Made by a program: the position numbers and the translations under genes | NCBI GenBank assembly: GCA_045541255.1 | Contig: JAZQIU010000027.1 | Coordinates: forward strand, 924-64,923 | Reading direction: 5' to 3' | Source: Bacilli bacterium | GTDB taxonomy: Bacteria; Bacillota_I; Bacilli_A; RF39; UBA660 | DNA: 64,000 nt | Shown: positions 10,813 to 18,872 of the stretch, piece after piece | Layout: the number at the start of each line of letters is the position of its first letter | Numbering within the stretch: the stretch's first letter is position 1 | The notes under the pieces: generated by a model | Told to the model about the DNA's origin: nothing | The model's input: only the letters and a program-made list of their open reading frames with translations | The model's database searches: none

Positions 10813-11520
10813 CTATGGAGTAGTATCATTATTTGGATCATAATCAGGTTCATTAGTTTGTGGTGTCGGATCTGCAAGTTCAATAGTTATAAAACATTTA
10901 ATTGTTTTTCCTTGATCTTCATTTTGTTCAGCACCAATTTCATTTACCCATATTTCAAATTCCCATTTATCTTTAGAACCTAACATACCTAATTCTGCTG
11001 TACCAATTTGCATTTTCCCAGTAAATCCCGCAGTTATTTTACCAAGTTTTGTTGGAGTTGTTTCTCCAGCAAAAGTATGGTTTACATAATTATCTTCTGT
11101 AAAATATTGGCTACCTTTTACACTATGAGTTCCTTTTTCTGTTTCTGTCAACAAATATACAACATTATCTGTTTCAAAATCATTTTCTGTTACATTTAAG
11201 TAAACAACATATTCTTCATTTGCTGATGCATCTACTGCACTTGTTACTGTAAAATTTAATTTATTAGTTGGAGTTTGATCATTTTCCCATTGTGGTCTAC
11301 CTGGAATCAAATTTGTATAATTAATTTGATTTAAAGTTTCAAATTCAATTACTCCTAATGTTTTTGATTGTACAGTTACATTTGGTTCTGTTGGGTTACC
11401 TTTTATTGTTACAGTAAAATAAGCGAATGTAGCTCCAATTACCGCAACTAATAATGTTGCTATACCTATTACTGATAATACAATCATTGAGCCTTTATTA
11501 TTTTCTCTTACATTATTCAT
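10813..11520 (-). CDS. Secreted protein with SipW-cognate (TasA/camelysin-type) signal peptide
   Basis: N-terminal anchor followed by GATFAYFT, the hallmark of TasA/CalY-type SipW substrates. Confidence 0.6.
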   Translation of the reverse strand: MNNVRENNKGSMIVLSVIGIATLLVAVIGATFAYFTVTIKGNPTEPNVTVQSKTLGVIEFETLNQINYTNLIPGRPQWENDQTPTNKLNFTVTSAVDASANEEYVVYLNVTENDFETDNVVYLLTETEKGTHSVKGSQYFTEDNYVNHTFAGETTPTKLGKITAGFTGKMQIGTAELGMLGSKDKWEFEIWVNEIGAEQNEDQGKTIKCFITIELADPTPQTNEPDYDPNNDTTP

Positions 11521-13871: not shown

Positions 13872-15725
13872 TTATTTAATATCAATAAATTGATTAGTTT
13901 TATAAGAAGTATTATTTTCAATAACAAATATTTCATATCTTCCAGTTGTTATATTTGGTGATATCTTTTCTATTTTTTCTTCACCTATATTTTTTAATGT
14001 ATATATTGCTCCAAAGTTATTAGAATCTATTAATACTAATTTAGCTTCTATATCATCCATAAATAATACATTATTTTCTATAACATTGTTTGAAATTGTA
14101 AAAGTATAGTCTATTACTTCATTTGTATTTCTTACTAAATTTATTACATCTTCTGTTAAAGGAATAGATGGTGTAATATTAATTGATGTTAAAACTTTTT
14201 CTTCTATAAATTCAAAATTGTATTGTTTGTTTAAATTTATTTTTGTTACTGATGATGAACCACCTTTAAAAGTTAATTCAACTACTTTTTTATTATCTTT
14301 ATATTCTATCATTTTACTATATAAGTCATTATATGAATTTATATCTATTGAATCTTCATAATTTACATTATTTAATTCTCTACCAAATAATACTATTTCA
14401 CTGTCATTATTTATTTCATAATCTCCTAATGCATAACTAAAATATTTTTTATTTTCATTTAATGAGTTTTTTAATGTTATGTTATTATTTATAATTTCAT
14501 ATGTATTAGCACTTGAGTAAGAACCTTTTAAACTTGATATAGCTGTTATTCCACTATTTATTGGATATCCATTATCAAAAACTTTTAATACATTGTCGTT
14601 TAATGTTGCTGAATACATTGATTCTGGATAAGTTCCATCTGTACTAACTAGCAAGTAATTACTAAATGAACTAGTAAAGTTTTCTGGATTAGAGAAAATC
14701 CAATTAATACTTGAATCACTATAATCTAAACTTATTACAAATTCTCCTGCCCAATATGTTAATAATAAAGTATCTGTATTTTCATAATATTCTATTCCTG
14801 AATTATTGAAATACGCATTATCTAAACCATTTGTAAAGCTATAATCTATATTACTAAATAGTTCATATATATCTACAGTTTTTACTATTTCTCCAGTATT
14901 TTTATCTATTTCTATTATTAGATCAGAATATGTAGCTCTGCCTTCTTTTTTACTAGAAACTATAATATTTCCATTATCTTTTACAAAGAAATCATTTAAG
15001 TAGCCACTTTCAATTGAATATCTATTATATACTCTACCTAAATAATCTATTTCTAATAAATCGGTACTTAATCCATTATTATTCATTGTGTTTGTACCAA
15101 CTAATAAATGTCCATTTTCTAATACTATTACATTATGATAAAAATCTTCACTATACCATCTTAATTTACCATAAGCATCAATCCCCATAGTGTTCATACT
15201 TAATGGTGATGTTATAAAATATATTTCTTTTTCTTCTGTTTCAATATTAGACTTTATATCTTTTGCTTCAATTTTATTTGTTTTGATTTTAAATGTTTTT
15301 GATTTTCCATTAGATAAATTTAATATTACATCAGTTTCTTCGTTTGCGTATAATCCAAATATTGGAATATAATGGTATTTATTTTTTTCATTATAATCTA
15401 ATTTTATATCATTGTTATTTTTTCCTTTTATAATAACTTCTACTGTTTCTTCACTATCTGTATAAAATGTAATCATTGCAGATAGTGGTGATGTATTATA
15501 AGGATTTATATATATACCAGCATTATTTAATGTATATTTATTTTTTTCTAAATTATTTTTTATTTCATTATCTATTTCAGATTGCATAACACTATTAACA
15601 GTTAGATATGAAGTTTTATTTTCTTTTATTGTTTTTTTATTATTCAATATTATTATTGCAATTATTGCTATAACTACTAATATAATAACTGATAATAATA
15701 TAATTGTCTTTTTATTCTTTTTCAT
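13872..15725 (-). CDS. Arylsulfotransferase (ASST)-family protein, membrane-anchored (tentative)
   Basis: N-terminal INPYNTSPLSAMITFYT...IPIFGLYANEETDVILNL resembles the ASST N-domain. The remainder is beta-propeller-like. By-eye call. Confidence 0.55.
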   Translation of the reverse strand: MKKNKKTIILLSVIILVVIAIIAIIILNNKKTIKENKTSYLTVNSVMQSEIDNEIKNNLEKNKYTLNNAGIYINPYNTSPLSAMITFYTDSEETVEVIIKGKNNNDIKLDYNEKNKYHYIPIFGLYANEETDVILNLSNGKSKTFKIKTNKIEAKDIKSNIETEEKEIYFITSPLSMNTMGIDAYGKLRWYSEDFYHNVIVLENGHLLVGTNTMNNNGLSTDLLEIDYLGRVYNRYSIESGYLNDFFVKDNGNIIVSSKKEGRATYSDLIIEIDKNTGEIVKTVDIYELFSNIDYSFTNGLDNAYFNNSGIEYYENTDTLLLTYWAGEFVISLDYSDSSINWIFSNPENFTSSFSNYLLVSTDGTYPESMYSATLNDNVLKVFDNGYPINSGITAISSLKGSYSSANTYEIINNNITLKNSLNENKKYFSYALGDYEINNDSEIVLFGRELNNVNYEDSIDINSYNDLYSKMIEYKDNKKVVELTFKGGSSSVTKINLNKQYNFEFIEEKVLTSINITPSIPLTEDVINLVRNTNEVIDYTFTISNNVIENNVLFMDDIEAKLVLIDSNNFGAIYTLKNIGEEKIEKISPNITTGRYEIFVIENNTSYKTNQFIDIK

Positions 15726-15736
15726 TGCTACACCCC

Positions 15737-17986
15737 TTATCCTAATGTATATGGATTATTATAAGTTCCATTTCCACCTGTTATTTTTGCTGTAGATTTT
15801 ATTTGAACTATTGGTCTAACAGCTAATGTTTTTGTTGTTATTGTCCCTGAATTTGCTTCAGAACCTACAGTAGTTATAAGTTTCCCATATGTATCTACAC
15901 TATAGTTATATGCGTATGCAAATACATTAGTATTATAATTTCCTCTATCTCCATTAAAAGCATTTCCAGAATCAACTAACCAGAAAGCACTTTTTCCACT
16001 CTTTATATAATTTGATGATGCATAAGTACAAGATGTATCACTACTACATTTTGCAACTTTCATATAATCATATCTACTTAATAAGCCAACTTTTACTGAT
16101 GTATATACATTAGTAAAACTTTCTAATAAGCTTGTGTCACTTAATTTAAAACCACTTAAAGTTGATCCCATTGTTTGATATTTAAATCCATAAGAAGTAT
16201 ATGTAGAACTATTTCTATCTGTGTCTCCTAAATATCTATACAAATATCTACCATAATTACAACAACTTGCAGTACATTTTCCAACTTGTCCATAAGCAGT
16301 AGATGTATAATTACTATCTAATATTAAACCTAATTTTCCTGAAGTTTTTTTGTATATTCTCCATAGTTTTCCACCATATCTAACATAATTGTTTGATTTA
16401 CTTCCTATATAATGGCATATATTATTATTACTTGTATCTTTAGTACAATTAGTATCAGACCACTCATTTATTTTTTTTGTTATGTAAGCATTAGCTTGTG
16501 TCCATGATGAACATCCAACTTTATTACAAGTTCTTAAATATAAATACTTTATGTTATCACTATTAAGTGAATTTGCATTAATTGTAAGAGAAGTTGATGT
16601 AAATGATGTACCACTAGATGTTGGTGTTGTATTACCTAGCGAATAGTAATATGTTGAACCGCTTAATGTATTTGTAGGTAATTTTAGTGCGAATGTTTTT
16701 GTTGGTGTATAGCTTGTTGAGGCACCGCTTGAAACAGTTGGTGAAGTTGGCATTACATCAATATTTATATTGTATTCTTTAGTAATAGTTCTTCCCAATT
16801 TATCTGTAACTTTTATAGTTATTTTATTTGCTGGAGTTGTTATTAAATCATTTTTTAATTCTTTATATGTAGAATCAGTATCTAATTTGTATTCTTTTTT
16901 TTCTATAATTTCTTCATTTGATAAACTTACAGATACTTTTTTACCTGTATTCCAAGTTGTACCAGATACTGTAGTATTATTAGCATTCTTAAATACAATA
17001 TTTGTTATTTCTAATGTTGGAACTTTTTTTATTGTTAAAGTAAATGTTTTTGATGTTATATAATCAGTCTTTGATATTAACTCGCTATCTGTATAAGTTG
17101 TCTTTTTATCTACTACATTTATTTTAAATGTATATGTTCCTTCTACTAAATCATTAAAAGTATTTGATGATTGTTTAGTAGAATCTTTTTCATATACAAT
17201 TTGTATTGGTTCGCTATCATATGAAGTGTTTATTTTTAAATTATAAGTATCGTTTGTTGTATATAAAGTATAATTATTAGCACTTTTTTCTTCCATATAA
17301 TGTTGATTGGTTACAAAGTTATCAGTGTTAATACTATAATCAAATTCATCTAAAACTATTACTTGACGCGTTTTAGATTTTAGTACTCCATCTATTTGAT
17401 ATGTATATTTTACATTATAAGTACCTGGTGTATTACCATCTATATTTTCTTCACAAGTATATTGATTATCACCACTAATACTTGTTACATAAGATAAATT
17501 ACTACTTATATTTAATCCATTTTTGTCATTAAATATTAATCCACCTGTAACACCTACAAAATGAGTACATTTAAAATCATCACCTTTAGCAATAGTTAAA
17601 GCATTTGCAACAACATATCCTTGTAATGAATCATCTTTCTCATAAGTAAATTCTAGATAACCATCTTCATTAAGAGTAACTAAAACTGGTGTTTCATCAG
17701 ATATTGCATTACCATTTTCATCAACAATATCTTCACTTATTAAACCATCTTCTCTTAATTCTTTAATTGTTACTGTTACAAAACCATATCCGTTATATAG
17801 TTTTTCAACAACCCCTGCATTACCATTGGTATATACTTCTGCTGCTGAAATAATAGTTTGTGTAACATCTTCTTTTGTTTTTTTACTAAATAATTTGTCT
17901 GAATTAACTCCAACAACTATTCCAATTATTGCAATTAATACTACACACATAATTATTTCTATTAGTGTAAACCCTTTTCTATTCAT
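15737..17986 (-). CDS. Large surface protein with prepilin-type N-terminal cleavage/methylation leader
   Basis: MNRKG|FTLIEIIMCVVLIAIIG class-III signal. About 700 aa of Ig-like repeats plus a Cys-rich C-terminal domain. Start placed at the second ATG (17986), because the first ATG is 1 nt from GGAG. Confidence 0.7.
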   Translation of the reverse strand: MNRKGFTLIEIIMCVVLIAIIGIVVGVNSDKLFSKKTKEDVTQTIISAAEVYTNGNAGVVEKLYNGYGFVTVTIKELREDGLISEDIVDENGNAISDETPVLVTLNEDGYLEFTYEKDDSLQGYVVANALTIAKGDDFKCTHFVGVTGGLIFNDKNGLNISSNLSYVTSISGDNQYTCEENIDGNTPGTYNVKYTYQIDGVLKSKTRQVIVLDEFDYSINTDNFVTNQHYMEEKSANNYTLYTTNDTYNLKINTSYDSEPIQIVYEKDSTKQSSNTFNDLVEGTYTFKINVVDKKTTYTDSELISKTDYITSKTFTLTIKKVPTLEITNIVFKNANNTTVSGTTWNTGKKVSVSLSNEEIIEKKEYKLDTDSTYKELKNDLITTPANKITIKVTDKLGRTITKEYNINIDVMPTSPTVSSGASTSYTPTKTFALKLPTNTLSGSTYYYSLGNTTPTSSGTSFTSTSLTINANSLNSDNIKYLYLRTCNKVGCSSWTQANAYITKKINEWSDTNCTKDTSNNNICHYIGSKSNNYVRYGGKLWRIYKKTSGKLGLILDSNYTSTAYGQVGKCTASCCNYGRYLYRYLGDTDRNSSTYTSYGFKYQTMGSTLSGFKLSDTSLLESFTNVYTSVKVGLLSRYDYMKVAKCSSDTSCTYASSNYIKSGKSAFWLVDSGNAFNGDRGNYNTNVFAYAYNYSVDTYGKLITTVGSEANSGTITTKTLAVRPIVQIKSTAKITGGNGTYNNPYTLG

Positions 17987-18033
17987 GAAATCCATACTCC
18001 TCTCATACTATAAAAAAATTATATAATTATTAA

Positions 18034-18043
18034 CCCCCCCCCC
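18034..18043 (-). repeat. Homopolymeric G10 tract (C10 on the plus strand) in the promoter region of the pilin-leader gene
   Basis: Read directly: taaCCCCCCCCCCgac. Lies 48-57 nt upstream of the ATG at 17986 and 10 nt upstream of a TATAAT. Confidence 0.95.
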
Positions 18044-18143
18044 GACTTTTTTCGAAGAGGAATTAGGTTATATAATTTCTAACTTTTTCATAAATAGAAT
18101 TTTATAGAACTAGAACTCTCAGTACTATATAATTAGTATAAAA

Positions 18144-18167
18144 CAAAAAAAGAACTTAATCAAGTTC
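18144..18167 (-). terminator. Terminator of the yebC-family gene
   Basis: GAACTTGATTAAGTTC hairpin (18152-18167) followed by a T-run on the minus strand. Overlaps the stop codon. Confidence 0.6.
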
Positions 18168-18872
18168 TACATTATGATAAATATCCGTTACATCTTCAAT
18201 CTCATCTAATAAGTTATAAAGCCTTAAGAATAGTTCCTTGTCTTCGCCTTCTAATGTCACTTTTTCTTTAGGATACATACCTACTTCATCAACTTCATAA
18301 TCTATATTTTCTATGAAACTTTCTAATGTATCTTTTATAGCATGTATATCAGTTGGATTACAAGTAATAATAATTTCTCCATTATTACTTTCTAAGTCAA
18401 CTATTTCTATACCAGCATCTAATACACGTTCAAATACTTCTTCTTCATTATTGTATTTAAAACCAATTACTCCTAAATAATCATAGTTATAACTTACACT
18501 ATTTGTTACACCTAGATTTTTATGTACTTTATTAAATGCTGCTCTAACAAACCCTACTGTTCTATTAACATTGTCTGTTAAAGTTTTAATAATTAATGTA
18601 CTAGCTCCAGGGCCAAAACCTTCATATACTACTGTTTGATAGTCATCTTGACCTGCGCCTTTTGCTTTATCTATTGCTCTATTTATAATGTCACTAGGAA
18701 CTTGTTGTTTTTTAGCTTTTTCAACTATTCTTTTTAAATTAATGTTTGTATCTATTTCAGGATTTCCTTTTGCAACTAAATATATTTCTTTTGCAAAAGT
18801 ACTATATAGTTTTGCTTTCGCAGCTCCTGTTTTTTGTATACTTGCTTTTCTTACTTCATATGCTCTTCCCAT
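18156..18872 (-). CDS. YebC/PmpR-family transcriptional regulator
   Basis: MGRAYEVRKASIQKTGAAKAKLYS... Full-length and collinear with the family. Confidence 0.9.
   Translation of the reverse strand: MGRAYEVRKASIQKTGAAKAKLYSTFAKEIYLVAKGNPEIDTNINLKRIVEKAKKQQVPSDIINRAIDKAKGAGQDDYQTVVYEGFGPGASTLIIKTLTDNVNRTVGFVRAAFNKVHKNLGVTNSVSYNYDYLGVIGFKYNNEEEVFERVLDAGIEIVDLESNNGEIIITCNPTDIHAIKDTLESFIENIDYEVDEVGMYPKEKVTLEGEDKELFLRLYNLLDEIEDVTDIYHNVELD

Follow-up and report, generated by a model that had tools for sequence, protein, structure and literature searches.

A length-variable G tract in a predicted terminator-like leader hairpin upstream of exported-protein genes of uncultured gut Bacilli

The G10 tract upstream of a prepilin-type leader protein gene in a Bacilli bacterium lies downstream of a conserved promoter and is predicted to form one strand of a long, terminator-like leader hairpin. 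It belongs to a cassette of roughly 150 nt that is present in many copies, and its length differs among strains. We consider it moderately probable that the strength of the hairpin is set by the length of the G tract and that heritable expression states result.

The G10 tract and its genomic setting

The window (the whole stretch of 64,000 nt that was analysed) has a G+C content of 24.4%. A run of C10 on the plus strand at 18034..18043 corresponds to G10 in the sense of the minus-strand gene downstream. The sequence-only reading that drew attention to this run had called it the only one of its kind in 64 kb, which was borne out: no other G/C run reached 6 nt, and the runners-up were three C5 runs. 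Under a first-order Markov model, 0.0005 C10 runs are expected by chance in 64 kb; the tract is therefore non-random. The flanks given for it in that reading were correct apart from "AAGTCG-G10", in which one G was counted twice; the true sequence is AAGTC-G10. The features of the region are as follows, in the direction of transcription.

18156..18872, minus strand: yebC/TACO1-family gene, the upstream neighbour (Pfam PF01709, PF20772)
18152..18167, minus strand: terminator hairpin GAACTT-GATT-AAGTTC followed by a T-run, overlapping the yebC stop codon and with a -35 box in its loop (sequence)
18135..18163, minus strand: promoter P0, with -35 box TTGATT (18163..18158), 17-nt spacer and -10 box TATACT (18140..18135) (promoter scan and conservation)
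18103..18129, minus strand: small hairpin at the 5′ end of the leader (fold)
18083..18100, minus strand: conserved motif ATTCTATTTATGAAAAAG, whose A-run is complementary to the U-run after the long hairpin and pairs with it in a 130-nt fold
18068..18078, minus strand: 5′ arm of the lower stem, AAATTATATAA, pairing with 18026..18016
18053..18067, minus strand: C/U-rich arm CCTAATTCCTCTTCG, partner of the G tract (folds)
18044..18052, minus strand: apical loop and linker AAAAAAGTC, 5-13 nt and variable in length and sequence among copies
18034..18043, minus strand: G10 tract, 3′ arm of the upper stem, hypermutable (sequence; length variants)
18012..18033, minus strand: 22-mer TTAATAATTATATAATTTTTTT, in which 18026..18016 is the 3′ arm of the lower stem and 18018..18012 the U-run
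17997..18001, minus strand: Shine-Dalgarno sequence AGGAG, 10 nt before the ATG at 17986 (sequence)
15737..17986, minus strand: gene for a 749-aa prepilin-type leader protein (MNRKG/FTLIE) with beta-rich Ig-like repeats and a Cys-rich C-terminal part (Pfam, TIGRFAM, ORF)
13872..15725, minus strand: arylsulfotransferase (ASST)-like gene, 11 nt downstream (Pfam PF05935, PF17425)

The ORF at 15737..17995 encodes 752 aa from its first ATG; translation most likely begins at the ATG at 17986 (MNRKGFTLIE, 749 aa), in agreement with the public gene call. The prepilin-type leader proposed for this gene was upheld by matches above cut-off to PF07963 N_methyl (22.7 bits; cut-off 21.2) and TIGR02532 (20.7; cut-off 16.3), and the N-terminus has the type IV pilin-like G/FTLxE motif and a hydrophobic helix. 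No prepilin peptidase, assembly ATPase or platform gene was found among the scanned neighbouring genes. The protein had only 6 relatives among 5.8 billion proteins, and no homologue was found in species-representative genomes. The term "adhesin-like" that had been applied to it remains a guess; AlphaFold gave a poor model (pLDDT 54), and no relative has a solved structure.

The gene order yebC, pilin-leader gene, ASST gene was kept in six related loci (L001-L006), and the pairing of the latter two genes in L002-L005. The ASST-like gene is probably co-transcribed with the pilin-leader gene. A two-component system lies further downstream, beyond the ASST-like gene. Beside it, a 235-aa ORF without a Pfam match (window 10813-11520, minus strand) is 32% identical to the N-terminal ~115 residues of the paralog family described below, and is a short camelysin/TasA-like relative. 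Comparison of window 13872-18130 with a MAG of the same species (L007 960-1400; YebC 99% identical) showed that yebC is there followed directly by a response-regulator gene. Strains thus differ in whether they have the block formed by cassette, pilin-leader gene and ASST gene.

The tract is part of a multi-copy cassette

Depth over 18012..18055 was 3 to 100x that of the flanks, and loose ends led into other genomic contexts. A search for the pattern GGGGGGTTAATAATTATATAATTTT in species-representative genomes revealed 27 copies, confined to four MAGs; at least 13 of these were in a MAG of the window's species (JAZLAK01), and two extra copies came from a metagenome. Tract lengths among these copies were G6-G10. 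In 197 kb of cassette loci, every G/C run of at least 7 nt lay inside a cassette. The 22-mer TTAATAATTATATAATTTTTTT, which occurs once in the window, was identical in 32/32 copies of types A and B. No Rfam family matched the region.

An alignment-based search of species-representative genomes with the paralogs yielded 171 relatives, of which 80 loci from 12 MAGs were kept. Forty-one loci had a G tract (G6-G13, modes 9-11; four of them at a contig end), 32 had none, and 7 were cut off too near the gene to tell. In family members without the tract, the same promoter and 5′ hairpin stand directly before the ribosome-binding site, indicating that the G-tract hairpin is a module inserted into the leader.

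The genes after the cassettes encode proteins of 520-770 aa whose first ~45 residues are nearly identical (MNRRQKIIVSVTGIFLVLLLLVGLTYAYFLT...) and whose bodies are 37-70% identical. These paralogs have weak camelysin/TasA-type matches at the N-terminus (Peptidase_M73, 27.9 bits in L115 and 21.2 in L093) and DUF6273 matches at the C-terminus. Several paralogs per genome, a common 5′ cassette and signal sequence, and divergent bodies give the family a Vlp-like layout; its leaders are camelysin/TasA-like or prepilin-type, and no lipoprotein signal was found. The pilin-leader protein of the window has only its last ~30 residues in common with the family (window 15740-15835, minus strand; ...RPIVQIKSTAKITGGNGTYNNPYTLG), about 50% identical to the C-termini of these otherwise unrelated paralogs. 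This common segment may be an anchoring or sorting motif.

One metagenome contig (L088, compared with L101 and L115) fuses the upstream half of one CAKOHW cassette with the downstream half of another, as a result either of cassettes recombining or of a chimeric assembly through the repeat. The idea that the cassette is a recombination site, like the vis/vrs sites of mycoplasmas, was rejected: each gene comes with a promoter of its own, and the copies are scattered. An invertible promoter was also rejected; the inverted repeats enclose only about 40 nt.

The G tract pairs with a C/U-rich arm in a predicted leader hairpin

Folding of the window placed the G tract opposite the C/U-rich arm CCUAAUUCCUCUUCG. 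Below these arms, AAAUUAUAUAA pairs with UUAUAUAAUUU in the lower stem, and the U-run and then the ribosome-binding site follow. In 37/37 related leaders, the paired G's of the tract were predicted to have only C (214 pairs) or U (115 pairs) as partners. Every change in the 5′ arm (A to G, C to U or U to C) keeps pairing with U or G in RNA; in the lower-stem part of this arm only A to G occurred, and the G-U pair was retained. The G-U compatible changes fit a putative RNA pairing on this strand. The hairpin was predicted in every copy, with z-scores of -2.5 to -4.6 in one set; across the 37 leaders, the median hairpin ΔG was -29 kcal/mol and the median z was -5.1.

The conserved sequence TCGAA pairs with TCG/TTCG just 5′ of the tract. 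Copies with longer linkers have a small apical stem with compensatory changes (CAA/UUG vs CGU/ACG). At the 5′ end of the leader, the equivalents of the small hairpin in paralogs have other sequences (GAGUAGU-AAG-ACUACUU, AGAGUA-GAAAG-UACUCU and GGUA-GAGA-UACC), and the ATTCTATTTATGAAAAAG motif is kept in types A, C and D as (C/T)AT(G/A)AAAAAA. TTAATA is invariant yet unpaired in the fold; the hairpin does not explain this sequence.

Leaders from distant genomes have the same design (lower stem, C/U arm, G8-G13, lower stem, U-run) with unrelated stem sequences. Their lower stems are AAGACUU/AAGUCUU, AAAAUCAUAU/AUAUGAUUUU, AACAUAU/AUAUGUU and AAAAAUUGC/GCAAUUUUU; examples of the arrangement are AAGACUUUAUACUUCUCCUCCGACCUCGAA...UUCG-G11-UAUAAACAGAAGU...AAGUCUU-UUUU, AACAUAUCUCUUCCCCAACCCC...GUU-G11-UAUGAAGAAAUAUGUU-UUUU and AAAAAUUGC...GGAGGGGGG-CAAUUUUU. 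Lower stems are wholly different between types and complementary within a type, and the TATAAT box is not retained. In types A-D the hairpin lies directly before a U-run (U4-U7), between promoter and ORF, which is the geometry of an intrinsic terminator. A simple scan for consensus terminators did not list the leader hairpin, its stem being interrupted.

We modelled the hairpin with tracts of different lengths. At G5 its energy was about -11 kcal/mol, and it gained stability in steps to reach about -24 at G14; it remained stable throughout G8 to G13. The predicted effect of a single G is graded and modest; because of this stepwise rise, a dimmer is expected rather than a sharp switch. Some copies (L134, L163 and L174) have interrupted tracts with the hairpin intact and look like locked versions.

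Two other roles for the tract were rejected. An upstream ORF running into it lacks a Shine-Dalgarno sequence, ends short of the tract in the window and is missing from CAK-type copies and from types C and D; a G-quadruplex would require more than the single G10, which is too short for an intramolecular form. In L093 (2923-3042) and similar JAZ-type copies, a leader ATG that lacks a Shine-Dalgarno sequence (ATGAAAAAATTAATAAAT...) opens a frame across the tract. The number of G's and the linker determine whether this frame meets a stop right after the tract or continues in frame into the main ORF; L093 is in frame at G10.

The same structure could act after transcription. It would then be an RNase III-type processing or stability element, or its C/U arm would alternate between the G tract and the ribosome-binding site or act in trans on the tracts of paralogs, as RepG does on tlpB. 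An outer helix does pass the U-run, pairing (C/U)AUGAAAAAA with UUUUUU(C/U)GU(G/A), and its 3′ strand would be missing from terminated RNA; the pairing of U-run and A-run may thus make a long double-stranded rod in the full-length mRNA, concerned with processing or stability, instead of a terminator. The arm also carries an anti-Shine-Dalgarno-like UCCUCU complementary to AGAGGA of the ribosome-binding site, predicted accessibility of that site shifted with G number in one copy, and RepG/tlpB provides a precedent (PMC8295292). However, the accessibility trend was inconsistent across the two copies modelled, the hairpin with its U-run has terminator geometry in all types, and neither a trans-acting RNA nor a cleavage site was seen. 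We consider such a post-transcriptional gate unlikely and prefer a terminator-like hairpin.

A conserved promoter lies upstream of the tract

The predicted transcription start of P0 is near 18128. TTGnnn, a spacer of exactly 17 nt and TAnnnT were present in 28/28 complete copies, mostly with an upstream TG, while the middle bases of the -10 box varied by copy (TACTAT, TATTAT, TAGAAT, TAAAAT, TATAGT, TATACT and others). This fixed framework around varying bases indicates that P0 is a selected promoter pattern. The distance from the end of the -10 box to the tract was 79-99 nt in most copies. Homology among copies begins at the upstream terminator hairpin, which has TTGAnn in its loop; the upstream terminators of paralogs are laid out alike, and their stems covary (AGAGTAT/ATACTCT, GTAGTT/AACTAC and AGTACTT/AAGTACT). 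This overlap of terminator and promoter, with the -35 box inside the terminator loop, is very compact.

These sequence features suggest P0 as the start of leader transcription. In a run with a transcriptomic label, one contig begins 4 nt before the tract of a paralog and crosses the U-run into the ORF; its depth is 3.7 and it could be contaminating DNA. It fits a start upstream of the tract with read-through, as weak evidence.

The sequence-only reading had put the tract either in the spacer of a TATAAT promoter or immediately upstream of a TTAATA/TATAGT promoter. Neither placement could be maintained. The TATAAT box has no -35 partner, and the conserved promoter lies upstream of the tract in 28/28 complete copies; from TTAATA/TATAGT, transcription would begin inside the Shine-Dalgarno sequence. 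A promoter listed by the scan, TCGAAA-18-AATAAT, was rejected as well: the spacing is 21-24 nt in sister copies, and TCGAA is accounted for by the apical stem.

A classic promoter switch would place the tract in a spacer or -35 region (TCGAAA, 18 nt, AATAAT; or a TATAAT without -35 box that depends on an activator, as in Bordetella fim), with tract length setting the spacing and hence initiation. With TCGAAA-18-AATAAT, G9 would give the optimal 17 nt. There is also a perfect TATAAT 10 nt past the tract, with a purine 7-8 nt beyond, and the 22-mer that bears it is invariant. True spacer-type tracts moreover occur after yebC in other species of the clade, both with a 19-nt spacer at the assembled length: TTGACA-N10-G9-TATAAT (L028 4840-4880) and TTGACT-G10-N9-TATAAT before a lipoprotein-like gene (MKKTEKYIYLVIILILLVVISCG; L077 4780-4815). 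Against this reading, the position 17 nt before TATAAT shows no conserved -35-like hexamer, and TCGAA is 21-24 nt from AATAAT in CAK-type copies; pairing with TCG/TTCG explains the conservation of TCGAA, so that no -35 box is needed for it. Types C and D have a different sequence after the tract, which yet complements the one before it. A well-conserved canonical promoter upstream of the tract and, weakly, the transcriptomic-labelled contig also speak against a promoter switch, which we judge improbable. The tract has the length of at least 8 nt found in the promoter-spacer class (porA/vlp type); it does not lie between a -35 and a -10 box. Since the conserved promoter lies upstream, and since the post-tract sequence changes in distant relatives yet complements the pre-tract sequence, we assign the tract to the leader hairpin rather than to a promoter spacer.

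In a further locus (L051 7470-7580), a mini-ORF of 15 codons contains a G10 that comes after a TGATATAAT promoter, with CCUCC 22 nt downstream. This G10 may be the 5′ arm of a hairpin with CCUCC.

Tract length differs among strains

We compared assembled contigs of eight public gut metagenomes with the locus; differences found in this way are differences between samples. The tract was G10 in the window, L001, L002, X2 and X3, and G12 in strain X1, where the contig is anchored in the unique yebC flank. X1 differed from the window at 2/486 other bases of the flanks. C12 was the consensus there at depth 90, so G12 is not a read error. In X5 the tract was interrupted (GGGGGGAGG in gene sense). A C9 variant in X2 was rejected as an allele of this locus; it belongs to a paralogous copy. 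Paralogs and relatives had G6-G13. The comparison of tract length among related genomes that had been proposed as a check of phase variation revealed length differences.

AGTC-G10-TTAATAATTATATAATTTTTTT was present in two lineages (L001 and L002; proteins 82% and 64% identical) in which the other intergenic DNA differs. In a third lineage (protein 55% identical), the intergenic region is short and plain and the tract is absent.

In the first contig comparison, contigs broke or ended at the tract in 4/4 metagenome runs. Four MAG contigs start inside a G tract (L117, L138, L157 and L195), one ends inside (L029), and several more start 30-210 nt from start codons of the family. The cassette is a systematic assembly breakpoint.

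These findings bear on the claim that the tract is a mutable phase-variation switch. In agreement with that claim, the tract is a non-random feature that orthologous loci conserve, its length varies (G10, G12, interrupted) and it precedes an exported protein; the promoter mechanism proposed for it is not supported. That there is no switch, the G-run being a plain structural arm or palindromic-repeat relic whose length differences are neutral noise or assembly or sequencing error, is very improbable in our estimation: G10 is the consensus in three diverged lineages at the locus (which could perhaps reflect stabilising selection on a structural arm, not switching), the modal tract length equals that of the complementary arm, the hairpin is kept despite interrupted or short tracts (L174, L163, L091) and the data are contigs only, but uninterrupted G9-G13 occurs in about 40 copies from about 10 genomes of 24-27% G+C, where mixed sequence would pair equally and stably, X1 has its deeply covered G12, and assemblies fragment repeatedly at the tract.

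Proposed mechanism

The preferred reading, a terminator-like leader hairpin tuned by its G tract, can be set out as follows. The predicted order of the cassette is upstream terminator, sigma-70-type P0, leader of about 140 nt, ribosome-binding site and gene. The G tract would lie about 85-94 nt past the predicted start as the 3′ arm of the upper stem of the long hairpin. An A-U lower stem would close the hairpin, and the U-run and then the Shine-Dalgarno sequence would follow, giving the shape of an intrinsic terminator (attenuator) before the gene. Gain or loss of G's during replication would shift the stability and geometry of the hairpin, and this change would alter the amount of transcript, or of translatable or stable transcript, that reaches the gene. 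We infer a gating role for the hairpin, by termination or in another way, and an effect of tract length on output. The likely outcome would be expression states that are heritable yet reversible. With the module ahead of about half of a large, divergent family of exported proteins, cell lineages could display different subsets.

In a bolder form, which we put forward as a tentative possibility, the module is a portable phase-variable terminator that brings its own G tract and C/U arm and sits between promoter and ribosome-binding site of about half of the 10-20 paralogs per genome. Slippage would set read-through gene by gene to give combinatorial coats, and terminated leaders may cross-talk in trans like RepG.

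If tract length tunes read-through, phase variation would gain a route that acts after initiation, and a heritable terminator of simple, tunable design would be at hand. The breaks of metagenome assemblies at these genes would then be explained, and commensal gut Bacilli would vary their surfaces as pathogens do. A hairpin with one mutable strand is copied before dozens of surface-protein genes in common uncultured gut bacteria, whose hosts include cattle, goats, rabbits and humans.

Comparison with known systems

To our knowledge, nearly all descriptions of repeat-slippage switches, which are textbook cases in a few pathogens, place them in a promoter or a coding region. In a 2025 review of phase variation, no word starts with "terminat", and neither "UTR" nor "untranslated" occurs. 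A literature search on homopolymeric-tract phase variation in gut Firmicutes metagenomes found no such system, and one on RF39 and phase variation found nothing relevant.

Poly-G or poly-C tracts precede the surface-protein genes porA and opc of Neisseria meningitidis and tpr subfamily II of Treponema pallidum. They set the spacing between -35 and -10 boxes or sit just upstream of the start site, and in tpr several paralogs have a common design. The spacer position that defines this group is not that of the tract described here. In the flgB switch of Clostridioides difficile, a phase-variable element in the 5′ leader acts after transcription initiation; it works by site-specific inversion and serves one operon. 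This "flagellar switch", as it is called in PMC5386303, resembles our cassette in its placement in the leader. It is unlike it in using inversion instead of repeat slippage and in being limited to one operon.

The uspA1 tract of Moraxella catarrhalis was reportedly placed downstream of the transcription start by Lafontaine et al. in 2001. It consists of 8-12 G's upstream of the ORF, and the uspA1 mRNA level is stepped by G number (PMC7302503). In contrast to the present family, uspA1 is one gene only, and neither a complementary C/U arm nor a terminator-like hairpin has been described for it.

The vlp genes of Mycoplasma hyorhinis (PMC10502178) are also divergent surface-protein genes, each with a conserved 5′ region and a homopolymeric tract, and switch independently and combinatorially. 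Their tract, however, is poly-A in the promoter region and their products are lipoproteins, whereas the poly-G described here is part of a leader hairpin, past the promoter, and the proteins have camelysin/TasA-like or prepilin-type leaders.

The tlpB leader of Helicobacter pylori is the closest mechanistic relative. Its length-variable G-repeat pairs with the C- and U-rich terminator loop of the small RNA RepG, resulting in graded expression (PMC8295292). Both systems have a variable G-repeat in a 5′ leader and a C/U-rich RNA partner, the leader position and the pairing being predictions in our case. In H. pylori the partner is a separate small RNA with one target operon, whereas here the partner is an arm in cis, within a hairpin predicted to be terminator-like, and the arrangement serves many genes.
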